From: Desulfatiglandales bacterium
Lineage (GTDB): Bacteria > Desulfobacterota > DSM-4660 > Desulfatiglandales > Desulfatiglandaceae
Direction of reading: 5' to 3'
Assembly: GCA_963662465.1 (NCBI GenBank)
Contig: OY759599.1
Span: 6,496,001-6,560,000, forward strand
DNA: 64,000 nt
Part shown: in pieces, positions 2,890 through 60,678 of the stretch
Position numbering within the stretch: position 1 is the first letter of the stretch
Layout of the letters: the number at the start of each line of letters is the position of its first letter
The notes under the pieces: model-generated
Told to the model about the DNA's origin: nothing
Databases searched by the model: none
The model's input: the letters and a program-made list of their open reading frames with translations, nothing else
Program-made: the position numbers and the translations under genes

Positions 2890-2924
2890 AAGTGAAAAGT
2901 GAAAAGTGAAGAGTGAAGAGTGAA
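2890..2924 (+). repeat. Heptamer tandem array (RAGTGAA)x5 at the gspM/gspN junction
   Basis: aagtgaa aagtgaa aagtgaa gagtgaa gagtgaa; gspN GTG (2920) lies inside the last unit. Confidence 0.95.
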
Positions 2925-3798
2925 GAAGCGTTTTAAATTTCTGGGTTATGGGCTTTATGCTGTCCTGGTGACGGTGGCCTTGCTCTATTATCGATTTCCA
3001 TCGGATGCGATTAAACAACACCTGATTCAAGTGGTTGGTCGGATGGAACCCGGGGTCATTCTTTCGGCCCGGTCTCTTCATCCGTCGTTTCCGCCGGGAT
3101 TGCAGTTGCTGGAACCTGTTTTTTCCCTGAAAGAACGTCCTGAAACAGCCGTTTTCAAAGCGGAACATCTGTTGGTGAGTCCCGGAATCGGATCGTTGTT
3201 TTGGGGGAGAGTTGCCTGGTTCTTTGACGCCGACGCCTATGGCGGTATTATCAGCGGCCGTATCCAGCTTGGGAAGCGCGGTGAAATGGCCGATCTTTCC
3301 GTGTCCCTTAAGGATGTTCGCATTCATGAATATGGGTTTCCGCCCGACTTGGGCATTGGCGATTTGACGGGAAATCTCAAGGGGGACGTGACCTATAGCG
3401 GACTCATGGACCGGCCCATAACGGGGGTCGGGAACGGAGATATTCTTATTTCAGAAGGGAAAATTGATCTTTTCCACCCGTTTCTGGGTCTTGAAACTAT
3501 CCCTTTTGGAAAATTACGCGCCCAATTGACCCTGAAAAAAGGGATTGTCAATTTGATCTCGATTTCCCTTGATGGAAAAGGATTTCAGGGAACGCTCTCC
3601 GGAACCATCCATCTTAATCGGATGATAGCCCGCAGTCGGCTCAATTTGAAGGGGACCATCGAACCGTTTGCGGCTTACCTCGGGACCTTGAAAGGGGGCC
3701 CGGCACTGCTGAGCCTTTTTCAGGGGGGACGAAACGACCTGAAACGTTCCTTCGTCATTCAGGGTACCTTTATGTCGCCGAAATTTCGGTTTACATAG
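2920..3798 (+). CDS. gspN: Type II secretion protein GspN
   Basis: N-terminal TM ending YYRFP, beta-rich AsmA-like body with AYGGIISG; deltaproteobacterial gene order. Confidence 0.75.
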   Translation: MKKRFKFLGYGLYAVLVTVALLYYRFPSDAIKQHLIQVVGRMEPGVILSARSLHPSFPPGLQLLEPVFSLKERPETAVFKAEHLLVSPGIGSLFWGRVAWFFDADAYGGIISGRIQLGKRGEMADLSVSLKDVRIHEYGFPPDLGIGDLTGNLKGDVTYSGLMDRPITGVGNGDILISEGKIDLFHPFLGLETIPFGKLRAQLTLKKGIVNLISISLDGKGFQGTLSGTIHLNRMIARSRLNLKGTIEPFAAYLGTLKGGPALLSLFQGGRNDLKRSFVIQGTFMSPKFRFT

Positions 3799-3841
3799 GC
3801 AATAGGCGATAGGGCCCATCGCCCATTTTTAATAGGAACTT

Positions 3842-4687
3842 ATGACCAGAGTTGCCAACATCCTGTTCAATCTTATGGCCCTGTCCATTGCCGTTTATCT
3901 CGGCGTGGATATCTTCTACCGGTTTGTGGATGTGCAATTAATGCCTGCAAAATCCGTGGAAATGGCGGCAGGGGCAGCTCCGGACCGGGTCCTGGAAAAG
4001 CTGCCGCTCCTGGCCCATTATGGAAAAATCAGCGAACGGGGGCTGTTGGGTGGTCCCGTAAAAGGGGGCATCGAAGCGGAAACGGAAGAAATGGGCGAAG
4101 AACAGATCGCGGCTCTTAAACCCACCAGTCTGGGCATCGTTTTGCTGGGGACGGTTTCTGGTCCTGAACGGGTTGCTTTTGCCGTGATGGAGGAAAAAGG
4201 GAAAAAAATGCAGGGCCTTTACCATACCGGAGACAAGGTTCAAGGCGCCCTGATTAAAAAAGTCTTGAGGGGCAAGGTGATTCTTGAGGTTAACGGGAAA
4301 GATGAAATCCTTGAAATGGAACAGACCAAAACCGGAAAAGGGGCAACCGCCGGGAACCGGAGCCATGGGGACACCATTACCGTTGCTCACGATGATCTTC
4401 AAAAGTCACTGGGTAACATCAACTCCCTCCTGACGCAGGTTCGTATCCGCCCTTTCATCAAAAATGGTCAGCCGGACGGACTGATGCTCTCCCGCATAAA
4501 GGCGGACTCGATTTTTTCCAAGCTGGGCCTTAAGAATGGGGATGTGGTCAAAAAAATAGACAACCAGTTGATCAAAAGCCCCGATGACGCTTTTGCATTT
4601 TACAACCGACTCAAGTCCGGCGCCGAGCTTTCGCTGGAAGTCGCCCGGGGAAGCGAAACGAGAACCCTTAATTACCATTTCAAATAG
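3842..4687 (+). CDS. gspC: Type II secretion protein GspC with C-terminal PDZ domain
   Basis: TM, HR domain (LLGTVSG...YHTGDKVQGA), PDZ (SIFSKLGLKNGDVV). Confidence 0.88.
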   Translation: MTRVANILFNLMALSIAVYLGVDIFYRFVDVQLMPAKSVEMAAGAAPDRVLEKLPLLAHYGKISERGLLGGPVKGGIEAETEEMGEEQIAALKPTSLGIVLLGTVSGPERVAFAVMEEKGKKMQGLYHTGDKVQGALIKKVLRGKVILEVNGKDEILEMEQTKTGKGATAGNRSHGDTITVAHDDLQKSLGNINSLLTQVRIRPFIKNGQPDGLMLSRIKADSIFSKLGLKNGDVVKKIDNQLIKSPDDAFAFYNRLKSGAELSLEVARGSETRTLNYHFK

Positions 4688-4690
4688 ACT

Positions 4691-6247: not shown

Positions 6248-6855
6248 GCTACATCCATGAGGCGCTGAAAAAAGCCCAAGATGAACGGGACCTGGGAAAA
6301 GGCTCGTACGCCGGAATAACGGCTCCCCAGGGGAAAAAGCCTCGCGTCGCCCTTCGCAAAACCATTTTGTGGGCTATTCTTGTGTTGATGGTTCTGCTTG
6401 CTTTTGCGGCCTATTCATGGTGGGATCTGAAAAAAATAGGGACGAATCATTATTCGCCCGTGCCGGAAAGCGCTGCGGCATGCTATGAAAAGGCGAGAGC
6501 GTTTAACCGGGAAGGTCGTTTGTCGGACGCCGGAGCATGGTATGAAAAGGTCATCGCCATGGACCCGGGCCATGTTCAGGCGCTCAATAACCTGGGTGTA
6601 CTCCGCCTTCATGAAAAGGACTACCCGGCAGCCCGAAGATGTTTTGAAAAAGCAAGCCACTTGAAACCCGATTATGTGGATCCCTATTACAACCTGGCCT
6701 GTGTTTCCGCGGTCACGGACCAGGCGGATCAGGGGCTTCGATATTTGGAAAAAGCCATTTCCCTGGATCCGAATGTTAGGGAGTGGGCGCGAAAAGATCC
6801 GGATCTGGATGCGTTGAGAGAATCGGTTTTGTTCCGGGAGATGGTTGGTAAGTGA
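6244..6855 (+). CDS. ExeB/GspB-like membrane-anchored TPR protein
   Basis: MSYIHEALKKAQDER is the GspB-type N-terminus; TM; about 3 TPR repeats (ALNNLGV, PYYNLAC); ATGA overlap with exeA. Confidence 0.7.
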   Translation: MSYIHEALKKAQDERDLGKGSYAGITAPQGKKPRVALRKTILWAILVLMVLLAFAAYSWWDLKKIGTNHYSPVPESAAACYEKARAFNREGRLSDAGAWYEKVIAMDPGHVQALNNLGVLRLHEKDYPAARRCFEKASHLKPDYVDPYYNLACVSAVTDQADQGLRYLEKAISLDPNVREWARKDPDLDALRESVLFREMVGK

Positions 6856-6884
6856 AGAGTGAAAAGTGAAGAGTGAAGGGTGAA
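6850..6884 (+). repeat. Heptamer tandem array (RRGTGAA)x5 at the TPR gene/gspD junction
   Basis: aagtgaa gagtgaa aagtgaa gagtgaa gggtgaa; supplies the TGA stop at 6853-6855. Confidence 0.95.
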
Positions 6885-6900: not shown

Positions 6901-8979
6901 ATGAAATATCATAAACTGTTATGCTGCTTTTTTGTTGCTTTGCTGGGAGTAGGGTTCTTTTTGATGCCCTCGTCGGTTTTGGGTGCTCGCGTGACGGGGG
7001 AAGATGGCGTCATCCCTGCCGTTCCTCAAAGCGCATCAGCAAAGGAAAAACCTGTTTCAGTTTCTCCTTCGCCCCTGAAGGGATCGGTCGAGGCCCAAAA
7101 GGAACACGCGCCGGAACCGGATGAATCGGAAGCTGCTGTGACTATCGATTTCGATCAGGTGGATATTCCCATTTTCATCAAATTTATGAGCGAATTGACC
7201 GGAAAGAATTTCGTCATCGACAAAGGCGTCAGGGGCAAGGTGACCATTATTTCCCCCAACAAAATCAGCGTGGATGAGGCTTACAGGGTCTTTGAATCGG
7301 TGCTTGAGGTTTATGGCTATACCACTGTGCCCTCAGGCAACATCATCAAAATCGTTCCCGCGGTAAGCGCTCGCACCATGAGCGTGGAAACCCGATTGAA
7401 GAAAGGCGCTCTGGACCCGGGCGATAAAGTGGTTACCCAGTTGATTCCCCTGCGGTATGCGGACCCTGATGATCTGAAAAAACTGTTTGCACCGTTTATC
7501 AGCAAAAGCAGCGTCATGGTGTCCTATTCCCCTACCCGAACCCTGATTGTTACGGATGTGCAGTCTAATATCAAACGCCTTTTGAGTATTGCCCACGCCA
7601 TTGATGTGAAAGGTGTGGGTGAGGAGATATCCGTGGTCCCCCTGGAATATGCCACCGCCGGCCCCCTGGCCAAGTCTTTGAATACGGTGTTTGAGCGGCG
7701 GGCCATGAAGCGCAAGGGCAGCGCTGATGAGCAGACCGTCACCAAGATTGTGGCCGATGAAAGGACCAATTCGTTGATCGTGGTGGCATCCGAGGACGAT
7801 TCCGCCAGAATCCGGAAACTGGTGGAACTTCTGGACAAGGAAGCGCCCCGGGGCAAGGGCGACATCCATGTGTTTTATCTGCAGCATGCCAATGCCGAAG
7901 ATTTGACCAAGGTGCTGACCGCCCTTCCGTCCAAAAAATCAAGTGGCGAAAACAAGGGGAAGGCCCCCATCCTTTCCAAGGAAGCCCGGGTTGTGGCGGA
8001 CCAGGCCACTAATTCCCTGGTCATCATGGCGGAAAAGGATGACTATCTGGTGCTGGAAGAGGTTATTCAGAAACTGGATATTCCGCGAATGATGGTTTTT
8101 ATCGAGGCCCTCATCATGGAAGTAAATGTGAATAAGGATTTCAACCTGGGTGTGGAGTGGGAGGGGGTCAAGGATATTTCCTATAATGGGAAGACCGGCG
8201 GGATTTTTGGCGGTTCCAAATCGTCAGATTCGGGTACCCTGGGGCCGATGTTGAGTACTGGAGCGCTTCCCAAAGGCTTTTCCATGGGGGTTATCAGCGA
8301 ACTTATCGAGATCGGCGGCATCAAATTTCCGAACCTGGCGGCGGTGGTGAACGCCTACCAGAAGGATCGGGACGTCCATATCCTTTCTACCCCTCAGATC
8401 CTCACCACGGACAATGAGGAGGCGGAGATCATGGTGGGAAAAAACGTGCCCTACCAGGTTCGTCAGGAAACCACGGATGCGCAGTTGAACTACAGTTCCT
8501 ATGAGTATAAGGACGTAGGCGTAACCCTCAAAGTCACCCCACAGATCAGCCAGGAACGGTTTGTTCGCCTCAATATTCATCAGGAGGTGACCCGGCTGGT
8601 CCAAGATTCCGTTTCGACCTCAGACTCAACGACGCGTCCTGAGACCTGGAAGCGTATGGCCCAGACTACGGTGATCGTCAAGGATGCCAACACTGTGGTG
8701 ATTGGCGGACTGATCGGGGATGAGACCACGAATACCGACTACCAGGTGCCCTGCCTGGGAAATATTCCCCTCGTGGGCTGGCTTTTCAAGGGGACCAGCA
8801 AATATCGGGAACGGACGAACCTCTTTATTTTCCTGACGCCTCGCATTGTCCAGAATCCGGCTGAGGCCAGAAAAATTTACCTGGATAAGAAGGACCAGAT
8901 CGAACGGATTAAGGAAGGGGTTATTAAAATGTACCATAGGACCAAACCCAAACCGCTGGAAGTGAAGAGTGAAAAGTGA
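6901..8979 (+). CDS. gspD: Type II secretion secretin GspD
   Basis: Signal peptide; N0 (IDFDQVDI...VRGKVTIISP), ADERTNSLIV N-domain repeats, secretin motifs ILSTPQILTTDNEEAEI and VPCLGNIPLVGWLFK; start could be GTG 6880. Confidence 0.95.
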   Translation: MKYHKLLCCFFVALLGVGFFLMPSSVLGARVTGEDGVIPAVPQSASAKEKPVSVSPSPLKGSVEAQKEHAPEPDESEAAVTIDFDQVDIPIFIKFMSELTGKNFVIDKGVRGKVTIISPNKISVDEAYRVFESVLEVYGYTTVPSGNIIKIVPAVSARTMSVETRLKKGALDPGDKVVTQLIPLRYADPDDLKKLFAPFISKSSVMVSYSPTRTLIVTDVQSNIKRLLSIAHAIDVKGVGEEISVVPLEYATAGPLAKSLNTVFERRAMKRKGSADEQTVTKIVADERTNSLIVVASEDDSARIRKLVELLDKEAPRGKGDIHVFYLQHANAEDLTKVLTALPSKKSSGENKGKAPILSKEARVVADQATNSLVIMAEKDDYLVLEEVIQKLDIPRMMVFIEALIMEVNVNKDFNLGVEWEGVKDISYNGKTGGIFGGSKSSDSGTLGPMLSTGALPKGFSMGVISELIEIGGIKFPNLAAVVNAYQKDRDVHILSTPQILTTDNEEAEIMVGKNVPYQVRQETTDAQLNYSSYEYKDVGVTLKVTPQISQERFVRLNIHQEVTRLVQDSVSTSDSTTRPETWKRMAQTTVIVKDANTVVIGGLIGDETTNTDYQVPCLGNIPLVGWLFKGTSKYRERTNLFIFLTPRIVQNPAEARKIYLDKKDQIERIKEGVIKMYHRTKPKPLEVKSEK

Positions 8980-8987
8980 AGAGTGAA
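8960..8987 (+). repeat. Heptamer tandem array (RAGTGAA)x4 at the gspD/gspE junction
   Basis: aagtgaa gagtgaa aagtgaa gagtgaa; encodes the last GspD residues (EVKSEK*) and its TGA. Confidence 0.95.
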
Positions 8988-10736
8988 AAGATTTTGGTTT
9001 CTGCAATAACAACGCCTATGTCATCCGGTATTCCAGACGGCCCTTGGGTCCGGCCGTTGGGAGAAATCCTTTCTGAAACCAGTGGGTTGCATGAAACCCA
9101 TCTTCAGCAGGCACTGCAGGTTCAGGAAGAAAAAGGGGGAAGACTGGGAGAGATCCTGATTCGCCGGAAGGTGATTACGGAAGGCGATCTACTCGCTGCT
9201 CTGGGATTGCAGTGGGATTTGCCGGTTTCCATGACCCTGCCCTTTGAAGATCTGAATACGGCTTTTACCGAAAATACGCCCATTCAGTTTCTCAAGAAAT
9301 TTAAACTGGTCCCCGTGGTTACCCGTCAAGGGGCCACTATTGCCGTCAATGATCCTTTACAGTTTCAGGCCCTGGATGATGTGCGGAGACTGCTGGATCT
9401 GGAGGATGCGGCCGTGGTGCTGGCGCCTGTTTCGGCGATTTTTTCAGTCATCAACGCGGCCTACGACGTAAGCGGCGATTCCGCTGAGCGGGTCATCGAG
9501 GACATGCAGGAGGGAGAAGCCGGTCGCATATTATCGGAAATCGAGGAGACAACGGATCTGCTGGAGGATACCAGCGACGCCCCCGTGGTGAAACTGGTCA
9601 ATCTCATGCTGAGCCGGGCGGTCAAGGCCCGGGCCAGCGATATCCATATCGAGCATTCCCAGCGCAAACTGCGCATTCGATACCGGGTGGACGGCATCCT
9701 TTACGACATGCTGAGCCCGCCCAAACATATTCAGTCGGCCCTGATTTCCCGCATCAAGATTATGGCCAAGATGAACATTGCCGAGAAGAGACTGCCCCAG
9801 GATGGTCGTATCAAGATCCGTATCGCGGACAAAAATGTTGATATTCGCGTGTCTACCATTCCCGTGGCATTTGGAGAACGGGTGGTCCTTCGGTTGCTGG
9901 ATAAAACCAACGTGCTGCTCAAGGCAACGGACCTGGGCATGCCCCAAAAGGATTTGACGACCTTTGAACAGCTCATTACCTCCCCCCACGGCATTATTCT
10001 GGTGACCGGCCCCACGGGCAGCGGCAAGACCACCACCCTTTATGCGGCGTTGTCCACCATCAATAAGACGGATATCAATATCATTACTATCGAGGACCCC
10101 ATCGAGTACCAGATCGACGGGATCGGCCAGATCCAGACCAACAGCAAAATTGATCTCACCTTTGCCAAGGGATTGCGCTCCATTGTCCGCCAGGACCCGG
10201 ACGTGATTCTGGTGGGGGAGGTGCGTGATCTCGAGACCGCCGAAATCGCTATCCAATCGGCCCTCACCGGGCATTTGGTTTTTTCCACCCTGCATACCAA
10301 TGATTCCGCCGGCGCTGTGACCCGCCTCATCGATATGGGCATCGAACCCTTCCTTGTTACGTCTTCAGTGACCGCTATTCTGGCCCAGCGGTTGGTGCGG
10401 GTTATTTGCGCCCAATGCCGTGAGGCGTACACCCCGGACGAGGAATCCCTCCGGAAGGTCGGCATCACTCGCGAGATGGCCCAGGGGGCGACCATCTATC
10501 GGGGGCGAGGATGTCCCGCCTGTCTGGATACGGGGTTCAAGGGCCGAACCGGTATCTTTGAGTTTATGGTGCTGGATGAAAAGATCAAAAACATGATTTT
10601 AAAAACTTCCGATGCCAATGCCCTCAAGCGGGCTGCTATCGAGGGAGGAATGACCACGCTGCGCCGGGACGGCGCCCGAAAAGTCCTTGAGGGGGTTACC
10701 ACCATCGAGGAAGTTTTCCGAGTGACCTATCAGTAA
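8976..10736 (+). CDS. gspE: Type II secretion ATPase GspE (start GTG 8976 or ATG 9018)
   Basis: MshEN-like RLGEIL, ASDIHIE, RLPQDGRI, Walker A GPTGSGKT, RQDPDVILVGEVRD, CxxC...CxxC zinc motif. Confidence 0.95.
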   Translation: MKSEKILVSAITTPMSSGIPDGPWVRPLGEILSETSGLHETHLQQALQVQEEKGGRLGEILIRRKVITEGDLLAALGLQWDLPVSMTLPFEDLNTAFTENTPIQFLKKFKLVPVVTRQGATIAVNDPLQFQALDDVRRLLDLEDAAVVLAPVSAIFSVINAAYDVSGDSAERVIEDMQEGEAGRILSEIEETTDLLEDTSDAPVVKLVNLMLSRAVKARASDIHIEHSQRKLRIRYRVDGILYDMLSPPKHIQSALISRIKIMAKMNIAEKRLPQDGRIKIRIADKNVDIRVSTIPVAFGERVVLRLLDKTNVLLKATDLGMPQKDLTTFEQLITSPHGIILVTGPTGSGKTTTLYAALSTINKTDINIITIEDPIEYQIDGIGQIQTNSKIDLTFAKGLRSIVRQDPDVILVGEVRDLETAEIAIQSALTGHLVFSTLHTNDSAGAVTRLIDMGIEPFLVTSSVTAILAQRLVRVICAQCREAYTPDEESLRKVGITREMAQGATIYRGRGCPACLDTGFKGRTGIFEFMVLDEKIKNMILKTSDANALKRAAIEGGMTTLRRDGARKVLEGVTTIEEVFRVTYQ

Positions 10737-11407: not shown

Positions 11408-11411
11408 GACT

Positions 11412-11439
11412 GAGGTCGGAGGTCAGAGGTCAGAGGTCG
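11412..11439. repeat. Heptamer tandem array (GAGGTCR)x4 between convergent genes
   Basis: gaggtcg gaggtca gaggtca gaggtcg. Confidence 0.9.
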
Positions 11440-16855: not shown

Positions 16856-18928
16856 ATGGCCCGGCCGTTTCATTCCATCTATTCTCATGGGTTTATCCGT
16901 TCGGCGGTTTGCGTGCCGGCCCTGCGCGTTGCCGATCCGGTCTACAATCTGAAACATACCTTATCGCTTGCCTACCGCGCTTCCGATCATCATGCCGCAA
17001 TGGCGCTCTTTCCGGAACTGGGGATTTCCGCCTTTTCCAACGAGGATCTGTTTCATCAGGATGCGTTGCTGGAAGCGGTTCGAGAGGCCGTGAGCGAGCT
17101 CATCGATGAAAGCAAAAACCTGTTTCCCGTCTTGCTGGTGGGCGCTCCCCTTCGCTTCCGGGGAAAGCTGTTCAACTGCGCCCTGGTCATCTACCGGGGA
17201 CAGGTGTTGGGGATCGTGCCGAAAACATACCTTCCCAACTACCGGGAATATTATGAAAAACGTCAGTTTGTTTCCGCTCGCCATGCGCTGGAACCGGAGG
17301 TCCGTTTTCAGGGGCAATCCGTGCCATTCGGCAACGATCTGATTTTTGAGGCGGAAAATTTACAAGGATTCGCTCTGCATGTGGAAATTTGCGAGGATAT
17401 GTGGGTGCCCATTCCGCCCAGCACCTACGGGGCCCTTGCCGGCGCAACGGTGCTGGCAAACCTGTCCGCCAGCAACATTACGGTGGGCAAAACCGACTAC
17501 CGGCGTCTTGTTTGTGCTTCCCAATCCGCCAAATGCATTGCCGCCTACCTCTATTCCGCTGCCGGCTATGGGGAATCTACAACGGACATGGCCTGGGACG
17601 GCTACGCCATGATTTACGAGAACAATGTCCTGCTGGCTGAAACAGAGCGCTTTCAGACGGAAGAACAGATTATTTTGGGGGATATTGATCTGGAGCGTTT
17701 GTTGCAAGATAGGATGCGTACTACGAGTTTTCAAGACACGGCATTCGATCATCGCGCACGGGTATCTAAAATGCGGCGGATTCCCTTTGCGTTTAAGCTT
17801 CCCGAAGGGAGTGTTTCGCTCATGAGAAACGTCTCTAGATTTCCCTATGTGCCGGGCGAATCCTCCGTGCGCGATGATCGCTGTTATGAGGTCTACAATA
17901 TTCAGGTCCAGGGTTTGATGAAGCGCATGTCGGCCGCTGGCGTCAAGAAGCTTGTCATCGGTGTTTCCGGGGGCCTTGACTCCACACAGGCGTTGATTGT
18001 GGCTGCCAAAACCATGGATCGCCTGGGTATTCCGCGCACCCACATTCTCGGTTACACCATGCCCGGGTTTGCCACCAGCGACGCCACACGGAACAATGCC
18101 CATGGGCTGATGAAGGCTTTCGGGATTTCGGCCAGGGAAATCGACATTCGACCGGCCTGTCTGCAAGTGTTTAAGGATATTGAGCATCCCTTTGCCGGAG
18201 GGGAGAAGCTCTACGACGTCACCTTTGAAAATGTGCAGGCGGGTCAACGCACGGCGCATCTTTTTAGATTGGCCAATTTTCATGAGGCCATTGTGCTGGG
18301 TACCGGTGATTTGAGCGAGCTGGCCCTGGGGTGGAGTACCTATGGTGTGGGAGACCAGATGTCCCATTACAACGTTAATGGCTCTGTTCCCAAAACGCTG
18401 ATTCATCATCTCATTCGCTGGGTGGTGAAAACCGGCCAGTTCAGCGGAGAAACCGATGATGTTCTTACGGCTATCGCCGGCACGGAAATTTCTCCGGAAC
18501 TGATACCCAACGAAAATGGCGATCAGGCGGAACCTTCACAGAAAACAGAATCCGTCATCGGTCCCTATGCGCTTCAGGATTTCAACCTTTATTATATCAC
18601 CCGGTTCGGATTTCGTCCCAGCAAGGTGGCGTTTCTGAGTTACTGTGCCTGGGGAGACAGAAACTGCGGGATCTGGCCGGGAATCCTGCCGTCGGCTCAG
18701 CGGAATCAATATGACTTGCCCACCATCAAGGGATGGCTTGAGGTATTTCTCTATCGTTTTTTCAAAACCAGTCAGTTCAAAAGATCCGCGCTTCCCAATG
18801 GTCCCAAGGTGGGCTCGGGAGGGTCCCTTTCTCCCCGTGGAGACTGGCGGGCGCCCAGCGATTCGGAAGCGACCGTATGGCTTGACGAGTTGCATGAAAA
18901 TGTTCCCGATTCTCTTAGTGACGAGTGA
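16856..18928 (+). CDS. nadE: Glutamine-dependent NAD+ synthetase
   Basis: Nitrilase domain ([24 protein letters not shown]) plus synthetase ([49 protein letters not shown]). Confidence 0.95.
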
Positions 18929-18955
18929 CAAGTATACTACTCATCACTCGTCACT
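18917..18955. repeat. Inverted heptamer hairpin overlapping the nadE stop
   Basis: agtgacgagtga (18917-18928) is the exact reverse complement of tcactcgtcact (18944-18955). Confidence 0.9.
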
Positions 18956-18987
18956 TCAAGAGGGAGTTGAACCGTGAAACATGAAAA

Positions 18988-22074: not shown

Positions 22075-22830
22075 ATGGAGACGCAAACAATAGAAGAAAT
22101 AAAACGGGTTATTATGGCTGAACTTCCAGAGCTTATGAGAAATGACCCGGATATGCGCAGTTTTATATTGAATGTCACCCGGGAAAGCTATTCGGACAAA
22201 AGAGAAACGGAAAGCCGCTTTGACCGGATGATGGATGAGTTGAAACGGGATCGCGAAGCCCGCGATAAAAAGTGGGCAGCTCAGGAGAAGAAGTGGGAAG
22301 CCTGGGAGAAGAAGTGGGATAAGGAGCACAAAGTTCAGGAGGAGAAATGGGAAGCCCAGGAGAAGAAATGGGAAAAAAACCAGCAGGTTATCAACGAGTT
22401 ATTGGAATCCGTCAAAAAGCTGGGGCAAAAGCATGACTCTACCCTTGGGGCTTTGGGGGCGAGATGGGGCTTGCATTCCGAATCCGCTTTTCGAAAAGGT
22501 CTGCGGGCCATTCTGGAGGGATCGTTCGGGGTGAAAGTGGAACGGTATGAAGACTACGACCACGAAGGGACCGTGTTCGGTCGGCCCGAACAGATCGAAT
22601 TGGACGTGTTGATCCACAATGGGACCCTGATCCTGTGCGAGATCAAATCGTCCATGAGCAAATCGGAGCTGTATACATTCTGGCGAAAGAAAAATTTCTA
22701 TGAAGAGAAACATGCCCGCAAGGCCAGTCGGGCGATGGTTATTTCACCCATGGTGGATGCGTATGCCCTTGCCGCGGCAGAGCAGCTGGATATCGAGATC
22801 TATGGATATGCTGAAGATGTTAAACCGTGA
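22075..22830 (+). CDS. Coiled-coil protein with C-terminal PD-(D/E)xK nuclease-like domain (DUF3782-like)
   Basis: QEKKWEA-type heptad repeats; GALGARWGL..ESAFR; IELDV...CEIKS; MVISP. Confidence 0.7.
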   Translation: METQTIEEIKRVIMAELPELMRNDPDMRSFILNVTRESYSDKRETESRFDRMMDELKRDREARDKKWAAQEKKWEAWEKKWDKEHKVQEEKWEAQEKKWEKNQQVINELLESVKKLGQKHDSTLGALGARWGLHSESAFRKGLRAILEGSFGVKVERYEDYDHEGTVFGRPEQIELDVLIHNGTLILCEIKSSMSKSELYTFWRKKNFYEEKHARKASRAMVISPMVDAYALAAAEQLDIEIYGYAEDVKP

Positions 22831-24002: not shown

Positions 24003-24051
24003 AAGTGAAAAGTGAATGGTGAAAAGTCTCTTCACTCTTCACTTGTCACTT
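24003..24051. repeat. Inverted heptamer arrays forming a hairpin over the purQ stop
   Basis: aagtgaa aagtgaa tggtgaa ... ttcactc ttcactt gtcactt; purQ TGA at 24046-24048 lies in the right arm. Confidence 0.88.
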
Positions 24052-27863: not shown

Positions 27864-27878
27864 GGGTATATACCTCTT

Positions 27879-28049
27879 TTAGCTGTTAGCCGTTAGCCGT
27901 TAGCTGTTAGCTTGTGGATAAAACTATTCAATATTCTCTTTATCGCATTGACCTTTCGAACACAATCTCTTATGAATTTATTTTAAATGTCGACCATTAA
28001 CGGCTAACGGCTAACGGCTAACGGCTAACGGCTAACGGCTAACGGCTAA
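27879..28049. repeat. Inverted heptamer arrays (TTAGCYG)x4-5 and (CGGCTAA)x7 flanking an 87-bp AT-rich spacer
   Basis: 27879-27913 ttagctg ttagccg ttagccg ttagctg ttagctt; 28001-28049 seven perfect cggctaa (reverse complement of ttagccg). Confidence 0.95.
27893..27982 (-). pseudogene. Possible 3' remnant of a four-helix-bundle (23S rRNA-IVP-like) gene
   Basis: Minus-strand frame reads NKFIRDCVRKVNAIKRILNSFIHKLTANG*, which recalls the C-terminal helix of that family; it is preceded by an in-frame stop. Confidence 0.45.
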
Positions 28050-28201
28050 CAGCTTTCTAACTTGAAACAAAGAGCGTCGTCAACTGACATTTTTTTGCAG
28101 GGCGCTTTGCCGGGCAGCACCCTGAACTTGAAATTAAAATGTCAATGCGTATCTTTTTTAAAATGTATTGACACAGGTTAATGTTAAGGAGCGACTTGCC
28201 A

Positions 28202-30543: not shown

Positions 30544-30587
30544 TGCTAAACTTTGCTCCTTAAAAACAAGAAATTTATTGACGGAAT

Positions 30588-30612
30588 AACTTAAAACTTA
30601 AAACCTAAAACC
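30588..30612. repeat. Heptamer array (AACYTAA)x3 just downstream of the deacetylase stop
   Basis: aacttaa aacttaa aacctaa aacc. Confidence 0.8.
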
Positions 30613-36145: not shown

Positions 36146-37025
36146 GGCCGCCGCTAAACGGCATATATTTATTCCTCTCCTGGTTTCCCTTCTGGTTATG
36201 GGGTTTTCACTGCCTGCGTGGTCCGGGGTCATTCGAACAACCGTCTCCAGCCATTGTACCATCACCCCTTCCGGTGATCTGGAATTAAACTTTGACATTC
36301 GGAATAAGGGCAACGTTACTGCCCACAAAACGGCGGCCACTTTGATCATATTTGATTCAATACGCCGTTACCCCGATTTGGGGGAAAACGCACCGGATGG
36401 GAATATTGCCCTGAAGGATAAAATCGACTGCCCTGGCTGGAAACCCGGTGTATATGTCGGTGTCGTTGTGGTTGCCTTTGAGGAAGAGAATGGTAATCCC
36501 CACATTGCTTATCATTTTTTTACCGTTAAATATCGTATGAAAAACAAGAATTTGCTCACTGCTGCCCCCCTTCAGCTGCTGGTAGACCCGCCTGTTTTCA
36601 ACCGGAAGGTCTTTTGGGACAGGGAAAAACCATTGAAGCTTATCTTGAAAAACTGCCGGAACTCAACCATTGCACCTGACCTGAACCTCTATCTTCCCGA
36701 TGGCTTCACCTCCCCGGGCGCCGGGGAGTCCTGCCAACTCCCGGCCGAAGATGAACGGGTGATCACGATTCCTGTTTTTCGAAGCGCAAATGCCGAGTCA
36801 AACAAAACCCTTCATCTGATCGTAAATTATGAATTCAACGAACTGCATTATGCTTCGCACCTCAAAAAAACGATCCGGATAGAAGAAAAACCGGTTTTTT
36901 TCAAGGCTTACCTGGTGATAAGTGCTGTTCTTCTTATTCTCTTGTGGGGGCTGTTGCTGGTTTTAAAAGAGAAAGTGAAGAGTGAAATAAATGAGGCTTA
37001 CCATGGAAACCGACGACATTATTAG
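36129..37025 (+). CDS. Exported beta-sandwich (Ig/CARDB-like) protein with C-terminal membrane anchor
   Basis: Signal peptide ending AWS; IRNKGNVTA motif; C-terminal TM followed by basic residues; start uncertain. Confidence 0.6.
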   Translation: MCFPNRAAAKRHIFIPLLVSLLVMGFSLPAWSGVIRTTVSSHCTITPSGDLELNFDIRNKGNVTAHKTAATLIIFDSIRRYPDLGENAPDGNIALKDKIDCPGWKPGVYVGVVVVAFEEENGNPHIAYHFFTVKYRMKNKNLLTAAPLQLLVDPPVFNRKVFWDREKPLKLILKNCRNSTIAPDLNLYLPDGFTSPGAGESCQLPAEDERVITIPVFRSANAESNKTLHLIVNYEFNELHYASHLKKTIRIEEKPVFFKAYLVISAVLLILLWGLLLVLKEKVKSEINEAYHGNRRHY

Positions 37026-37698: not shown

Positions 37699-37723
37699 AT
37701 CACGTCACCCTTCACTCCGGGCT

Positions 37724-37868: not shown

Positions 37869-39771
37869 GTGCGCCTGTGAAGGCGCTTTATCAGTGCGGT
37901 GAAAGTCCGTACCGGAGTATGCCATAGCTCCGTAGCCGAAGGTAACTGCGTCGCCGCGAGGCGGGGTGGAGAGCAACCGGAGGCGAAAAGTCAGTCCGTA
38001 GGATGACGAACCCGATTCGGTGTCATGTGGTGGCGAGCCTACCGTTCCATGGTGAAGCCTGAAACTCACAGACCACGCTGTAATGGCGGTTAAAGCGATG
38101 GTTTGACGGCATGGTATGTTTGGGGTCGGAATGACTGGAAGGTAAAGCGAGATAAGCAGGGAGACCTGTCTCTTGGGGTGACAGGAGGCAGGAGTCAGAG
38201 TCCTCATAGTACCGTAGCGACAGAACGGTCCTGCTAACAAGGCTTACGGCGTGAGACCAGTACCCGCCGCCTGCGTCGGATACCGGGTTGTGAAAAGCGC
38301 GGATAGCAAAACCGTGCCGAGGGAAGGAGGATAGGAAGATAGATACGGAAAGGTCATATAGATGCAGCTAAATCAAGCAGTCTCGGCAGTGTTGGAAACA
38401 ACTAAACGCGAGGCAGAAACCCGATGGGATTGGGTGGAAGCATCGGTGTGGACGGAACGTATGTTGGCAGCCCTGGGTAACGGGGTGAAAGGTGGTAAAT
38501 GGTACAGTTTGATGGATAAGGTGTTCGCCTTGTCGACGCTGGAAGCGGCTTGGGGACGTGTCAAAGCCAATAAAGGAGCGGCAGGGATAGACCGTATCAG
38601 CATAAAGCGCTTTAAGGAGCAGGCGGAGAAATACCTTGCCGAACTGCATGAAACCTTGAAAGCGGGAACGTACCGACCGGAAGCGGTAAAACGGGTATAC
38701 ATTCCGAAAAGCGACGGCAAACAACGCCCGCTGGGGATACCCACGGTCAAAGACCGGGTAGTGCAGGCAGCGGTTAAAATGGTTATGGAGCCCATATTCG
38801 AGCATGAATTTCTGCCGATGAGTTACGGCTTCAGGCCGCAAAGAGGTTGCAAGGACGCGTTGCGAGAAGTAGACGCGCTTATTAAGGAAGGCTACACCTT
38901 CATACTGGACGCCGACCTGAAAAGTTACTTTGATACGATTCCGCACGATAAGCTGATGCAACAAGTCGAAATGCGCATCAGCGACGGCAAATTGCTCAAT
39001 CTGATTCAAATGTTCCTGAAACAGGACGTGATGGACGGCTTGGAAAGATGGACACCGACGGGTGGTTCGCCACAAGGGGCGGTAGTCAGCCCCTTGCTTG
39101 CGAATATTTACCTGCATCCTCTTGACAGCCTGATCGCGGAATCAGGTATGCGGATGGTGCGTTACGCGGACGACTTTGTTATCCTCAGCCGCAGTCAAAC
39201 GGAAGCGGAGAATGCTTTGCAAAAGGTACGGGAGTGGGTACAGGCTAATGACCTGAGCTTACACCCGGACAAGACGCATCTTGGCGACTGTCGACAAAAG
39301 GGTCAGGGATTTGAATTCCTGGGATACCGGTTTGAGGCAGGAAAGCGCTGGATACGCAGTAAAAGCCGTAAAGCCCTTCGTGATAAAATCCGGGAAGAGA
39401 CCCGGCGCAAACGTAGCGGAAGTATGGAAAGCATCATTGATGATCTGAACCCCATGCTTGAAGGCTGGTTTGGTTACTTCAAACACGCCTACCGCACTGA
39501 GTTTGCGGCGGTGGATAAGTTTGTCCGCCGACGCTTACGCGCCGTATTATTGCGTCGTAACAAACGCAAGGGCTGGGGCAAAAGCCTTGAAGCCCACCGC
39601 CGCTGGCCGAATGCCTACTTCGCGAAAATCGGGCTTTTCACTATGCATGAGGCCCGGTTAGCAGCGTGCCGATCCCGATGAGGAAACTATCGACCGGAGA
39701 GCCGTGTGCGGGAGAACCGCATGCACGGTTCGGAGGGAGGGGAGAGCCCAGAGGCTCTTTCCTACCCCTAT
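37869..39771 (+). mobile_element. Group II intron, apparently complete
   Basis: 5' GTGCG at 37869; domain V gagccgtgtgcgggagaaccgcatgcacggttc with AGC triad; domain VI ending cctacccctAT at 39771; EBS1 cgttcc (38043-38048) complementary to 5' exon ggaacg; RT ORF inside. Confidence 0.93.
38362..39681 (+). CDS. ltrA: Group II intron reverse transcriptase/maturase without endonuclease domain
   Basis: GAAGID, RPLGIPTVKDRVVQ, SYGFRP, DADLKSYFDTIPH, GSPQGAVVSPLLANIYL, RYADDF, FEFLGY, domain X (GWFGYF); 439 aa, no HNH. Confidence 0.95.
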   Translation: MQLNQAVSAVLETTKREAETRWDWVEASVWTERMLAALGNGVKGGKWYSLMDKVFALSTLEAAWGRVKANKGAAGIDRISIKRFKEQAEKYLAELHETLKAGTYRPEAVKRVYIPKSDGKQRPLGIPTVKDRVVQAAVKMVMEPIFEHEFLPMSYGFRPQRGCKDALREVDALIKEGYTFILDADLKSYFDTIPHDKLMQQVEMRISDGKLLNLIQMFLKQDVMDGLERWTPTGGSPQGAVVSPLLANIYLHPLDSLIAESGMRMVRYADDFVILSRSQTEAENALQKVREWVQANDLSLHPDKTHLGDCRQKGQGFEFLGYRFEAGKRWIRSKSRKALRDKIREETRRKRSGSMESIIDDLNPMLEGWFGYFKHAYRTEFAAVDKFVRRRLRAVLLRRNKRKGWGKSLEAHRRWPNAYFAKIGLFTMHEARLAACRSR

Positions 39772-39797
39772 AGTGCGAAAGCGAAGTCAGTAGCGAT

Positions 39798-39824
39798 TTT
39801 CACGTTAATCCGCGGTGAGCCAAT
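39798..39824 (+). repeat. 27-bp direct repeat of 43142-43168 (right arm of a hairpin element)
   Basis: tttcacgttaatccgcggtgagccaat vs tttcacgttaatccgtgatgaaccgat; first 15 nt identical, 4 mismatches in 27. Confidence 0.8.
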
Positions 39825-39933
39825 CTTTTTTTCAATTTTAATGAAGGATGCGGAATTATGTTGGGATTGATAACCGCAATTTTTTAAATCCTCACAAGAG
39901 GACCCCATAATCTTCTGTGATCCTCTGTTTTTC

Positions 39934-39968
39934 AACCGTAAACCGGCAACCGTAAACCGTGAACGGTT
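39934..39968. repeat. Heptamer array (AACCGTR-like)x5 abutting the cyclase stop codon
   Basis: aaccgta aaccggc aaccgta aaccgtg aacggtt. Confidence 0.85.
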
Positions 39969-42900
39969 ACTTCTTAGTCAACCGACAAACACAATCCCAC
40001 TGCTCCCCGGGAGCTACCGGTGGATTCCCTTTAAACGCCCGGCATCGATCAATATACACCTGGGAAGGCGTGGTTTTTCCATCGGGAACCCGTTCCATTT
40101 TCAGGGCTTCCTCAAAGCGGGCGATGGCCAGGTCCCATGCCATATCGAAATAATGGGCCATTCCCAGGTCAAACACCTTTATTAAATCTTTTTCCGCATC
40201 GGTGAGGCCCCCTTTCATGGCGCAAAGCTCATAGACCCGTACCGGTTCGGACTTTCCCACGACGGCAATGGTGTCAATAAAACGGACTTCCACCAGGTCA
40301 AACACCTGTTTCGTGTTGCCGTCCTCATCCGTGATTCCCCTCTGAAGGGTATCGTGGCTCACCAGGATGTACACGCCGTACTGTTTGCCCGCCTCCTCCA
40401 GCCGTGCCGCCAGGTTTACGGGATCCCCCATCATGGTGTAGTTCATCCGCATGGCGCTTCCCATATTGCCCACCACGATTTCACCCGTATTGATTCCGAT
40501 GCGCATCTTCATGGTGTGAACGATTGCCGGCCATTTGTCCCCCGGCTTCCACTCGTCCGTATTTAATTTCTTGGTGTTGCGATCCGGATCATTGGGGTTT
40601 TGTTTTTCATTTCGCCATCTTTCGCAAAGCACCGTGAGTTGTCGCTGCATGGAAACCGCCACCCGGCAGGCTCTGAGTGCGTGGTCGGGAACCGCCATGG
40701 GCGCCCCGAAAAAAGCGATGATGGCATCTCCCTCGTATTTGTCCAGGGTTCCCATTTCATTGATCAGAATATCCGTCATGACGGAAAGGTAGTCGTTGAT
40801 GAGTTCCACCAACTGGTTGGCGGTCAATTTCTCGGAGAAAGTTGAAAATCCCTGAATATCGGTGAAATAGGCGGTAATGGGCCGCGCTTCCCCTCCCAGG
40901 GTGGGCATGGTTTTGTTTTTGTACATTTCGTCAATAATCTCAGGCGCAAGATAGCTGGAGAAGGTGGTCTTCAGAAATTTTTTGTCTTTCTGCTCCGTCA
41001 AAACCTTAAATACGATGATGCCCCCGAATATCATGACGTTTGAAAAAACGAGCGGCGTGGTGGTCAAAAACAGATTTGATAAGCTGAAAAGGGCAAAACT
41101 GACGATCAGGGTCCCGAGTAAAACCGTGATAAAGATAGCGCTGCCGATGCGAATACTGGTGAACCCGTAAATCAAACAGCAGAAGAGGCAAAGCCCCAGA
41201 AGTACCAACAAATCAAAATGGGGAATATCCCGAGAAAGGGTCAGCTCGTTTCGGGTAATGATCGTATTAAATGCGTTGATCAGGGTGTTAATGCCGGTCA
41301 TGGCGCCGTAAGGGGTTTGTTGGATATCTCCCAGTATTCGCGCCGTTGCGCCGGTAAATACAAACTTGTTGTAATAGCGTTTAAACTGTTCAGTATAGGC
41401 GTCCATGAGGGCCGCCGCCACCGATTTTTCGCTCAGAAAATAAGCCGGATCTTGCCCAGCCGCCATGCCGAAATCGGGGTATTGGTCAATGAGGGTTCGC
41501 AAAGTGCCGGGTGCGGCATCGAGGTTCATGAAATAGTAGGCATAAAAAAAATATTTCCCATTTTCAGGATAGCGATTCAGGTACTCCCGTAAACGAGCAT
41601 CATCCTGTACTTCATCACCCAGATCCCGGGCGGCCTGATTGAAGATATGGTAGGATTTTTCTTCACAAAAGGCAAAAAACCATTCTTCAAGGGCACGGGT
41701 GTCATAACCCGCCTCGATGTTGCCCGAAGCATCCAGCACCGGAATTTCAGGCATGGCATCCATGGCATATATTTTGCTGTAGCTCTTTGTGGGTACGGTG
41801 TTGAACATCTCGGGCGCCCCGGTCCTGGCATCGATGAAATACCGTTTTTCGGTGCCTGAATAGTTGATGTAGCCGAATCCCGGCACCGGGGTTTGGATTT
41901 CGATGGTCCCTTTTTCATAAACAACCAGATGAATCCGGTTTGCCTCGCCTTTCTGAGCCGCGTCAAAGATCTCCCAACCCTTCAGAATTTTAAAGCCCCC
42001 GGTTTCTTTCAGCACATGGAGGGGGAAATCCGGCGTTTTTTTCCCGGGCTTGGTTTCCATCCGAAGCCGGTTTGAGAGTAAGGCAAACAGGTTTCGGTTA
42101 TATGGGTATTCCTTGGGCGGCGCCGGGTTCAGAATTTTATTTTTTAACCATTTAAAATCCTTTTCAAACAGCTCGAGCCGGCGGGTCGATGGATCCAGCA
42201 CCGGAATATTTGCCGAAGAAAAAACGACTTTGTCCCGTTCTATTGAAACATCTTCATTGGCGACACGATAATATCGCTTCACCAGAACAAGGGTGGCTGT
42301 AAACAGGTTTCGAGCGGTTCCATCGCTCATTTTGTAGGTATAGTAAAGGGGGAACATACGGGTTACGCCATCGTCGTCTGAAAGGACATTGACGATGGCC
42401 GGTTGCGCGTTGGATATGAATTCGCTCAACACCGGTTCAAGGGAGTGAAAGACCAGAAGACTGCTGTTGTTTTTTAAAGGCAGTGAATAGTTTTTTAGAA
42501 TTTCTTCATTGAAGAGAATGCGGTTCAGGTAGGCTTTGGGAAGATCCGGCCGGGGGTGTTCCACCAACTGAACATCCAGAAACACATTGTGGTATTTTTC
42601 AAGGGTTTTGGAAAAGGCCTTGTCCATTTCACCAAAGGCGTTTTCCACTTTTTGTAGAAGTTCCGGTTCAGATGTCAATTTTTCCGACAGAAACGGGGGA
42701 GTGGTTTCACTCTTTACAAAGACCACATCAAACATCACCGTTCTGGGGGAAAATTTTTCCAGATTCTCCAGCATTTGCGCATGAACATCCCGTTTCCAGG
42801 GCCATTTTCCAATGGCAGCAATGGAATCTTCATCAAACCCCAGGAGGATCACCTCCTGGCTTACCAGGGGGTTGGGTTCGTGGATCTCGGGTTCCCGCAT

Positions 42901-43218: not shown

Positions 43219-43239
43219 GAGTGACAAGTGACAAGTGGC
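43219..43239 (+). repeat. Heptamer array (RAGTGRC)x3 upstream of the radical SAM gene
   Basis: gagtgac aagtgac aagtggc. Confidence 0.7.
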
Positions 43240-44703: not shown

Positions 44704-44722
44704 GTCACTCTTCACTTTTCAC
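44704..44722 (-). repeat. Heptamer array (reverse of the RAGTGAM family) after the radical SAM gene
   Basis: gtcactc ttcactt ttcac. Confidence 0.7.
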
Positions 44723-48580: not shown

Positions 48581-49489
48581 ATGCGAAACATTATTTTTCT
48601 CAGTCGTTTTTTGGTAACCTTTTTGGTGGGGCTGTTTTTCATTTGTTCTCAGGCGTATGCAGGTGTACCCGTGGCCAAAATAACCGGATTCCAGGGCGAA
48701 GCCGTCATCATGTCAGGAACGCAATTTGCCAGCGTTACCCAGGTTGGCCAGGCATTAAACAATGGCGACTTTGTCCAAACCAAACAGGGTAGTGCTGACA
48801 TCACCTTTAGCGATGGTGCGGTCATGAACGTCCGACCCTTTACCAATGTGTCCATCAGCGAACGAAAAGTGCAGGATGGATCTTCCACCAACCGAAGGAT
48901 CACCTGTTTTGTGGGAAAATTCCGTTTCAAAAGTGGCCAATCACAGATGAAAAATTATCTTCAGACTCCAACGGCCGTGTGCGGACTGAGGGGCACCGAG
49001 GTTGGTTTCGCATATAATGCCGACACTCTGAACACTTATCTGCAAATGTACAGTGGGGACGCGTCTGTTGTGGGCAATGTGGTTCGGGGTGTCTTCGAAT
49101 GGGAAAGCAATGTTGACAGCGCGTACAAAAGCGCCGTTTTCCGCTTGCTGGAAGAAGCCCACACCGCTTACCAGGACGCTCAGTCCATGCCGGACGGTCC
49201 GGAAAAAGACCTGGCCATGGCAAAGGCCAGGCTCAAAGCACTGGATGTGGCCCGGGGCGCGGCTCAGCTGTTATCGGACAACAATCCAGATGAAGACGTT
49301 CGGTCGAGTGCACAGGAGGCGCTGCTTGTAATAGGCGAGGAAGCCGAACAGGCACAGTCGCAGGTCAATAAGGCTCAGAGATTACTGGATGAGGATAGAG
49401 CCATACGGGAGTCAATAACTACAACCACCACCACGACAACGACTACCACCACGACAACCATAGAAACAACTGTGAGCCCATCCAGTTAG
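48581..49489 (+). CDS. Exported FecR-domain protein with poly-Thr C-terminal tail
   Basis: AAGGAGG RBS; signal peptide (AYA); GDFVQT...ITFSDG, QTPTAVCGLRGTE FecR motifs; 14 consecutive Thr then IETTVSPSS*. Confidence 0.8.
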   Translation: MRNIIFLSRFLVTFLVGLFFICSQAYAGVPVAKITGFQGEAVIMSGTQFASVTQVGQALNNGDFVQTKQGSADITFSDGAVMNVRPFTNVSISERKVQDGSSTNRRITCFVGKFRFKSGQSQMKNYLQTPTAVCGLRGTEVGFAYNADTLNTYLQMYSGDASVVGNVVRGVFEWESNVDSAYKSAVFRLLEEAHTAYQDAQSMPDGPEKDLAMAKARLKALDVARGAAQLLSDNNPDEDVRSSAQEALLVIGEEAEQAQSQVNKAQRLLDEDRAIRESITTTTTTTTTTTTTTIETTVSPSS

Positions 49490-57851: not shown

Positions 57852-57875
57852 CCTTTTAAGGGGCGGATTAGATGG

Positions 57876-58328: not shown

Positions 58329-58340
58329 GAAGCAAGTCCT

Positions 58341-59454: not shown

Positions 59455-59482
59455 AAGTAGATGATATGGTTGCTGTTTTTTT

Positions 59483-59515
59483 ACTTAAAACCTAAAACTT
59501 AAAACTTAAAACCTA
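59483..59515. repeat. Heptamer array (ACYTAAA)x4 overlapping the methyltransferase stop
   Basis: acttaaa acctaaa acttaaa acttaaa accta; TAG on minus strand at 59513-59515. Confidence 0.88.
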
Positions 59516-60505
59516 TTTTGTCCCCACCATAATGCCTGAATCGGTGGGCCCTCTAAAGGGCAGCCGTTCAATATGGTGCAAACCGGATTTTTCCATCATC
59601 TCATGAATCCGGTCTTCGGTATAGGATCGTCCTCTTTTGGTGTTGATCAGCATGTTCAGGGAAAAAAGGGCCGGAAAAAGGGGCCCGTCGGACATGTTGT
59701 TTAAAATGAAATCGTGTACCAGGAGGGTTCCCCCGTCATCCAGGGCCGACGCCGCTTTTTGTATGATCATGTCACATGCATCCGGTCCCTCGCCGTGCAG
59801 GATATGGGAAAGCCATGCCACGTCGTAGTGTCCTTTGATGTCCTCTTTTACATAATTGCAGGGCGTAAAATGGATCCGGTCTGAAAGTCCGAAACGGGTG
59901 ATGGTTTTTTCCGCAAAGGGTCGGGTGGCGGCAAGGTCCGCCACCGTTGCTGTTAGTTCCGGGTTGGCCAGGCAAAAATGGATGGCATAGGTGCCGGGAC
60001 CGCCGCCCAGGTCCAGAAAACGTGTTTTTCCCTGAAGATCAATTTCCTTTGAAACCCGGGGCGCAATGGCCATGGCCAGATTGAACATCCCCATGAGAAA
60101 ACTTTCTCGGGTTTTGTCGTCGCGAACCACGCTTTTCCCGACGGACCGTCCGGTTCTGGCGGCCTCATCCAGACGGGACCAGGGTTCCACCAGGTGATGG
60201 TGGTGCATGATCATGAAACCGATATACCGGGGAGAGTCCTTGACCAGAAAGGTGAGACCCTCCGGTGTATTGGCATACTGATCCGCTTTTTTGACCAGCA
60301 GTTTCATGGCTGAAAGCCCATTTAAGAGGGTTTCCATGCCGCGCAAGTCAAAATCGAGCCGTTGGGCCAGTTCATCCGCCCCCATCTTTCCGTTGCCGAT
60401 TTCCGAAAACACGTCCAATTTTACACCCGCATGAAGGGTGCAGGTCTCCCAGTATTTTCCTGATAATGCCAGCAGTTCTCCCGCATTCCATGCCGCCATG
60501 GTCAT
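59513..60505 (-). CDS. SAM-dependent O-methyltransferase with dimerisation domain
   Basis: LHAGVKLDVF wHTH, LDLGGGPG, SHILH, LFSLNML, GRSY. Confidence 0.85.
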   Translation of the reverse strand: MTMAAWNAGELLALSGKYWETCTLHAGVKLDVFSEIGNGKMGADELAQRLDFDLRGMETLLNGLSAMKLLVKKADQYANTPEGLTFLVKDSPRYIGFMIMHHHHLVEPWSRLDEAARTGRSVGKSVVRDDKTRESFLMGMFNLAMAIAPRVSKEIDLQGKTRFLDLGGGPGTYAIHFCLANPELTATVADLAATRPFAEKTITRFGLSDRIHFTPCNYVKEDIKGHYDVAWLSHILHGEGPDACDMIIQKAASALDDGGTLLVHDFILNNMSDGPLFPALFSLNMLINTKRGRSYTEDRIHEMMEKSGLHHIERLPFRGPTDSGIMVGTK

Positions 60506-60650
60506 TTTCCCCCGATCCATTTTGTCAAGATGCTTCAATGCCCCAGATCCGGCATTCTCTACCAATAGATGGAAAAAATCAAGTTCCGAAAATGGTTTTT
60601 GGTTTGCCTTGGCATATTGACATCCACCGGCAATGGGAATAGGGTAGAAA

Positions 60651-60678
60651 TTTTGAGTTTTGAGTTTTGGGTTATGAA
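60651..60678. repeat. Heptamer array (TTWTGRR)x4 in the divergent intergenic region
   Basis: ttttgag ttttgag ttttggg ttatgaa. Confidence 0.75.

Follow-up and report, generated by a model that had tools for sequence, protein, structure and literature searches.

Heptameric long simple-sequence repeats are in excess across bacteria (Mrazek 2007, as summarised in PMC4679880), and two groups of them have been described at gene junctions. In Xanthomonas (unit GGGAATC) and Nostoc, G-rich heptamers lie between aligned genes with the G-rich strand just past the stop codon and form convergent pairs (Rehm 2015, PMC4692102). The TAACTGA repeats of Beggiatoaceae are likewise intergenic with a period of 7, stop all three frames, overlap gene ends and are patchily distributed; they were read as regulator-binding sites or slippage products, with no cassette (MacGregor 2015, PMC4679880). 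A third system is formed by the intervening sequences of 23S ribosomal RNA (rRNA) in Coxiella and Leptospira, which hold an open reading frame (ORF) of the S23p type, a member of the PF05635 family, within terminal inverted repeats; in the Coxiella element tandem heptamers of variable number precede the ORF, ORF decay is described and excision by RNase III has been shown (PMC4990558). Here we examine a 64,000-nucleotide (nt) stretch of a Desulfatiglandales bacterium (the window; GCA_963662465.1, contig OY759599.1, positions 6,496,001 to 6,560,000), in which short 7-nt arrays of several unrelated units sit at gene junctions. We propose that the arrays are probably the surviving inverted arms of small PF05635 (TIGR02436) four-helix-bundle cassettes, and that most solo arrays descend from such arms. 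A known repeat class is thereby tied to a known gene family through an architecture that we have not found in print: the main text of Rehm 2015 contains neither 'helix bundle' nor 'intervening' and reports no link to mobile elements (PMC4692102), 'helix bundle' is likewise absent from the main text of PMC4679880, and a search from which subscription journals and supplements were excluded found no link between heptamer repeats and a four-helix-bundle gene.

The key case lies upstream of purL, where the element at 27879-28054 is a gutted four-helix-bundle cassette with its middle deleted. The original prediction had suggested, with reference to this site, that the arrays are footprints of an element sitting at gene boundaries, or else translational insulators or RNA processing signals, and the comparison with relatives supports the first of these views. 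A pattern scan for the window's arms recovered an intact cassette, L163, plus nine other loci, most of them gutted or cut by contig ends. The stretch next to the 3' arm shares 32 of 38 non-repeat bases with the intact L163 gene (score 52, shuffle maximum 26), and the end of the spacer matches the C-terminus of the protein profile (p = 0.013). An empty allele is present in G010 (PurL 96% identical), in several other congeners and in run X4; relative to it the element replaces about 35-40 bp, with no target duplication. The terminal inverted repeats of the element and of the intact cassettes are able to form a stem, and the element folds strongly (z = -9.8), while a promoter and terminator scan of 27700-28300 stayed at chance level. 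In other genomes a gutted copy of the same parent is multi-copy (L159, L162, L165, L166, L168 and L265); it was deleted at a short repeat, leaving a 29-codon frame, and has inverted ends of its own, with an apparent 8-bp duplication in two copies.

The association of heptamer arms with this gene family extends well beyond the window. In the genome that holds it (G000, a single contig of 8.16 Mb), the genes found between widely spaced inverted arrays are four-helix-bundle genes. PF05635 has 11 matches there at ten loci, eight of which have a heptamer 5' arm and six both arms as called. Intact cassette genes pass the PF05635 and TIGR02436 cut-offs, with the window holding a relic only, and the closest structure to the cassette protein is 2gsc (XCC0516, E 1e-22). 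None of the 11 matches lies inside a 23S gene. Unlike the 23S intervening sequences, the cassettes here sit between protein genes, with relics also in the 23S-5S spacer, and gene-less relics number in the hundreds. Relatives were sampled by their best-scoring fetchable matches (114 stretches, with 178 weaker matches outside the sample), which left 107 genes after removal of G000's own, of duplicates and of three at contig ends. A period-7 array stands upstream of 73 of these 107, downstream of 65 and on both sides of 56, with an inverted match in 45, whereas any other period flanks both sides of only 0-8. The 5' arm starts at a median of -2 nt from the upstream stop, that is, 2 nt inside it, and 40 of 41 starts fall within -41 to +23; the genes are co-directional with their neighbours in 41/49 and 47/52 cases.

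Arm units track the protein. They agree to within one mismatch in 73% of 15 pairs with at least 70% protein identity and in 1-2% of 883 pairs below 45% identity, an agreement which shows linkage by descent and not co-evolution. Of the G000 arrays, 244 of 522 have a unit also seen in relatives' cassette arms (shuffle mean 52, maximum 72), and nine of 26 long hairpins retain a gene relic by profile match. A separate family, GxxExxY, forms a parallel cassette system: its genes (12 PF13366 matches in G000, e.g. 108665, 5563239, 7021931 and 7091744) have their own flanking inverted repeats of period 8-10, and these flanking units make up the leading families of G000 at periods 8 to 10.

Empty, array-only and array-plus-gene alleles had been predicted at orthologous junctions, and all three were found. 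Between cheR and cheB, an intact cassette in G010 corresponds to identical arms with a 315-bp internal deletion in G000 and to a different cassette with different arms in G003. The atpB-atpE junction carries a cassette in G001 and is empty in G000, and after gspC there is an intact gene in G074 (with period-8 arms), a gutted copy in G119 and a 3-bp empty junction in G000. Intact cassettes share the orientation of the neighbouring host genes and place their 5' arm on the upstream stop codon; comparison of orthologous junctions shows that they are gained, are replaced and undergo internal deletion. More broadly, G000 junctions orthologous to a relative's cassette hold an array at 6 of 19, against a background of 343/5002 (p = 0.0013).

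The arrays themselves are real and numerous. The units listed in the original prediction are present at 17/17 positions, including the TGA codons at 2893, 2900 and 2907, and the 18917 and 44704 arrays, although under the Tandem Repeats Finder threshold, are recognisable by eye. An assembly artefact is unlikely, given that other genomes share arrays; run X2 reproduces the listed pieces without differences, but may be the source data. Genome-wide, period 7 proved far above chance and above periods 5, 6 and 8, as the prediction required: exact runs of at least 14 matches number 183 at lag 7 and 0/2/10 at lags 5/6/8, with one in the shuffled genome, and Tandem Repeats Finder at score 40 reports 492 period-7 arrays against 0/5/38/94 for periods 5/6/8/9. 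Our own caller returned 522 period-7 arrays with 78 units. At least eight families occur here, most of them unable to form quadruplexes; Xanthomonas and Nostoc differ in having one unit per genome (PMC4692102). With gene boundaries taken from a home-made gene caller, whose starts are uncertain, 315 of 522 arrays turn out to be no more than 50 nt from a boundary (101 expected for random and 199 for random intergenic placement), bearing out the claim that arrays sit at gene junctions. As had also been claimed, they hold the called stops of the TPR gene, gspD, nadE, purQ and the O-methyltransferase gene; those of gspN and of a gspM-like gene (Pfam match below cut-off) lie within arrays as well. 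About 62 of the 522 fall inside called genes, and GATTGTT-type arrays occur within or next to the linker that precedes the receiver domain in a set of paralogous signalling genes (G000:C1 716665, 3111942, 3248543, 3978129, 4601260 and 8010888).

The dominant heptamer families are lineage-specific and differ sharply between congeners, with 179 RGTTTTA matches in G000, 87 in G010, 73 in G008 and none in five congeners, and 57 AGTGAMR matches in G000 but at most 10 elsewhere. Local clustering of one family along the chromosome was not detected (34/142 neighbours against 27.8 expected, p = 0.10), so that local hopping is not demonstrated for the four RAGTGAA arrays in the secretion operon. Arrays and small genes are concentrated in three islands of G000 (G000:C1:85500-104000, 7.09-7.125 Mb and 8.10-8.16 Mb), whose left arms in turn recur with periods of about 44-105 bp. 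A stretch of 10 kb at the contig end (G000:C1:8151577-8161625) is 99.5% identical to a near-start copy (91899-101959), reflecting a recent duplication or an assembly overlap.

The arms are polar, and their order is close to invariant. Among 56 inverted pairs within 500 bp, 48 are G-rich then C-rich, six are skew-neutral members of one family in the same order and two are reversed. Solo arrays at co-directional junctions behave as the matching half of such a pair: G-rich arrays start at a median of 5 nt past the stop, and 117/133 are nearer the stop, whereas C-rich arrays end at a median of 26 nt before the start, and 30/72 are nearer the stop (Fisher p = 7e-12). In wide gaps stop hugging is suggestive only (11/31 against about 5). 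Among 68 neighbouring array pairs in one gap, counted outside the three islands, 58 run G-then-C, none C-then-G and ten are of the same type, and 20 of the 58 join different, mismatched families. Since insertion side by side followed by deletion would often leave C-then-G, this order implies either nesting inside older loops or selection against C-then-G. The intergenic location, the G-rich strand after the stop and the convergent pairs described by Rehm 2015 are found here as well. At secretion-operon junctions of relatives, three to six heptamer families can be stacked, mostly with the G-rich types first (L252, L253, L255, L221, L222 and L223).

These observations bear on whether the arrays are ordinary slippage-born long simple-sequence repeats, kept as hairpins, between which four-helix-bundle genes just happen to land. 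The excess of period 7 across bacteria has been explained by slippage of the polymerase (Mrazek 2007, as summarised in PMC4679880). Array copy number does vary by whole units among orthologues, so that lengths change in steps of 7, and at 11412 G010 has a two-unit degenerate seed; moreover, most arrays lack any relic. A comparison of G000 with 878 kb of G010 anchored 40 array sites, of which 13 hold the same family, four another array and 23 none called, eight of these 23 differing by a multiple of 7. Slippage, however, gives no reason for the 58-to-0 arm order, least of all for mismatched families, and leaves unaccounted for both the near absence of periods 5, 6 and 8 and the sharing of units with cassette arms. 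Nor does it fit with different cassettes bringing different arms to one junction. We therefore regard this explanation as unlikely. The claim that the arrays are not the product of ordinary slippage holds for their polarity, shared units and cassette alleles, but must be softened in one respect, in that slippage may act as a second step, array lengths often differing by multiples of 7.

The original prediction had also given stop codons a central role. Stops are indeed carried by every family in the window, but not genome-wide, where 169/522 arrays have a unit that is stop-free on both strands. Nor do they define the arrays: among distinct units stops are about as frequent as among letter-shuffled versions of the same units (49/81 in G000 against 45.1 expected, p = 0.17), with a weak excess on the opposite strand in relatives' arms (13/39 against 7.7 expected, p = 0.02). 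The same follows from the AGCYRTT hairpin found just upstream of the 5S gene in two of three rRNA operons of G000, the third spacer being bare, as the 23S-5S spacer is untranslated. The two hairpins lie at G000:C1:6657918-6657974 and 6663649-6663705, and the three operons are adjacent. Stops may instead act as a filter on arms that overlap gene ends, and would then not be the purpose of the arrays, which would be passengers, an arm overlapping a gene end surviving where it supplies the stop.

Were the arrays signals selected by the host, acting at operon junctions as terminators, RNase III sites or three-frame translational insulators, one could understand why they hug stops, why all three sense frames are closed by 81 of the 133 solo G-rich arrays and why the 27879 element folds so strongly. 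The reuse of the same junctions by different families in relatives points the same way: secretion-operon junctions hold arrays of many families in 10/25, 5/29, 10/26 and 11/27 genomes (relatives, G000 included), with reuse at the first, third and fourth of these. Against this, distinct units show no enrichment of stops, the closest relative lacks a called array at 23 of 40 sites, the secretion-operon junctions are bare in most congeners, the hairpin is missing from one of three rRNA operons and the dominant families differ sharply between congeners. Beyond position, nothing was found in favour of the translational insulators suggested previously, and we consider host-selected signals a very improbable origin.

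A different kind of spread is evident in part of the set. Outside the three islands, 91 of 373 arrays share their inner flank with arrays elsewhere (control 6), forming families of 26, 25, 13, 8 and 6 copies, the largest of which includes the window array at 30588; about a quarter of arrays thus ride on multi-copy non-coding elements. In the families of 26, 25, 13 and 8 copies (e.g. 555394, 469399, 573734 and 831196) the arm follows a small hairpin, and one multi-copy non-coding family has an apparent direct repeat at both ends. An element family of 228-256 bp has GTAACCGTTCAC ends; its body is a gutted cassette, with CGGTTYR arms and the opening codons of the cassette gene that G010 has between cheR and cheB. 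Nine near-full copies are 93-97% identical, and 11/13 paired ends have 8-bp target duplications with at most one mismatch; the window copy at 39822-39970 keeps one end only. With their terminal inverted repeats, 8-bp duplications, presence/absence polymorphism, multiple copies and lack of coding capacity these resemble bacterial MITEs (miniature transposable elements with inverted repeats, non-autonomous derivatives of insertion sequences). They differ from plain MITEs in that the body is a gutted cassette and in that the family accounts for one window array and a genome-wide minority. Some gutted cassettes have become cargo of multi-copy non-coding elements, two kinds of which have 8-bp target duplications.

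It could be argued from this that all arrays are pieces of ordinary MITEs, or of repeats like the repetitive extragenic palindromic (REP) class, moved by insertion-sequence transposases with the gene as incidental cargo. The duplications at GTAACCGTTCAC ends, the shared flanks and the multi-copy gutted relatives of the window's parent, with their own inverted ends, all speak for such an origin. Yet 262/370 arrays share no flank, and these hug stops more tightly than the flank-sharing ones (116/262 against 31/108). In addition, neither a target duplication nor an extra terminal repeat is present at 27879, at 18917 (where 46 bp are added) or at cheR-cheB. The GTAACCGTTCAC ends are presumably of IS66 type, but no IS66 element bounded by them was found at the nine IS66 transposase loci of G000, the search being confined to that family. 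As an account of all arrays, this explanation has very little probability in our view.

Several observations weigh against descent of the arrays from cassette arms and should be stated together. Some 500 arrays in G000 stand against about ten gene loci, 17 of 26 long hairpins have no relic and most arrays show no direct cassette trace; 278/522 array units have no exact match among the sampled arms, and among window units the matches number 8/17. Comparison of the window's own array junctions, over 25-29 genomes per secretion-operon junction and 30 purL loci, turned up no intact cassette, and the full and gutted copies after gspC sit at a junction that is empty in G000. An array is missing from 13 of the 19 orthologous junctions, five of the 19 belong to a single 10-kb region and certain mappings are to weak paralogues. 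The intact cassettes are explained neither by a target duplication nor by an enzyme, and the relatives are not independent samples. Finally, arm duplexes are similarly stable on the gene strand and on the opposite strand (25 against 19, p = 0.37), so that nothing here favours RNA over DNA.

If the arrays are cassette arms nonetheless, a sequence of events can be proposed. Insertion would occur repeatedly at one junction, usually within the loop of older arms, and subsequent deletion would leave either hairpins or solo arms, of the 5' type at stops and of the 3' type ahead of starts, which slippage would then maintain. By analogy with the 23S rRNA intervening sequences, the arms may pair in the transcript to give a stem cleavable by RNase III. 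The cassette protein also has weak homology to Avd of the diversity-generating retroelements (NF033474, E 3e-11 and 4e-8), with two intact proteins reaching 43 and 34 bits where the cut-off is 80. Avd binds RNA. No adjacent reverse transcriptase or template repeat was found in the cassettes examined, which sets them apart from the Avd module. We tentatively suggest that an Avd-like protein assists in duplicating the element via RNA, by means of a borrowed reverse transcriptase, a suggestion that draws only on the weak Avd similarity, the in-line orientation and the lack of duplications. A wider and equally doubtful possibility is that the cassettes are self-spreading, transposase-free RNA stem-loop elements, whose Avd-like pentamer would recognise its own 7-base arms and insert at translation junctions and into older arm loops; their decay would then be the main source of bacterial heptamer repeats and would seed new miniature transposons.

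The individual features of the window, with the state of the corresponding site in relatives, are listed in Table 1. The half miniature element adjoins a group II intron (37700-39820; reverse transcriptase at 38389-39678, TIGR04416) whose insertion point is the edge of a small palindromic repeat; the whole 2.27-kb block, intron and half element together, is absent in G010. In-frame tandem repeats of 3 and 21 bases within called genes, at 49421-49460 and 22255-22319 respectively, are unrelated to the heptamers.

Table 1. Heptamer arrays and derived features of the window (window coordinates), and corresponding sites in relatives.
Position	Strand	Feature	Site in relatives
2886..2926	+	Solo G-rich (5'-type) arm, RAGTGAA x5-6, beginning in the gspM-like stop	Related RAGTGAC array in G010; empty in eight congeners
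3795..3828	+	Decayed TAGGCRA hairpin on the gspN stop	226-bp miniature element (GTAACCGTTCAC family) inserted in G010
6850..6884	+	Solo 5'-type arm, RAGTGAA, with TPR gene stop	Two units shorter in G010
8960..8990	+	Solo 5'-type arm, RAGTGAA, with gspD stop	Different heptamer array in G010
11408..11438	+	Solo 5'-type arm, GAGGTCR, directly past HAD hydrolase stop	21 bp shorter and degenerate in G010
18912..18961	+	Gene-less hairpin, AGTGACR / YGTCACT, with nadE stop	46 bp missing from G010
24003..24051	-	Gene-less hairpin, RAGTGAA, with purQ stop	Absent in G010; other heptamer hairpin in G004; two units longer in run X4
27879..28054	-	Four-helix-bundle cassette with internal deletion, upstream of purL (5' arm 28054-27998, 85-bp spacer, 3' arm 27912-27879)	
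27913..27952	-	Relic of PF05635 gene 3' end, continuing into 3' arm	Match to L163
30039..30082	.	Gene-less hairpin, CRGCTCA / CGGTTYR type, convergent junction	Retained in G010, in part in G004
30560..30611	-	TTTTAAG arm with conserved flank of 26-copy non-coding family	
36973..36990	+	Two-unit RAGTGAA remnant	Full hairpin abutting next ribosome-binding site in G010
39822..39970	-	Half of miniature inverted-repeat element: GTAACCGTTCAC end, CGGTTYR arm, relic of gene's first codons	Absent in G010
43219..43237	+	AGTGACA arm, divergent junction	
44704..44722	+	Solo C-rich (3'-type) arm, 16 nt upstream of carbamoyltransferase start	
59483..59515	-	TTTTAAG arm with O-methyltransferase stop; flank like 13-copy family yet not clustered with it	Two units shorter in G010
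60651..60682	+	TTTTGAG / TTTTGGG arm, divergent junction; unit is that of intact cassettes elsewhere in G000	Absent in G010

New in this work are the identification, for a relic, of both its parent and the empty allele, a series of full, gutted and replaced alleles at one junction, and a 58-to-0 order of arms that includes mismatched families. As a caution for annotation, arrays of this type should not be labelled control signals of individual genes. Since 2007 heptamers have been recorded as the most frequent long simple repeat of bacteria, with no origin yet accepted, and these long-unexplained repeats would gain a source if the arrays are indeed cassette arms. For the S23p/four-helix-bundle protein, a structure exists, but a function does not yet. 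The series of empty, full, gutted, replaced and MITE-captured alleles at named junctions makes both questions testable with defined constructs.

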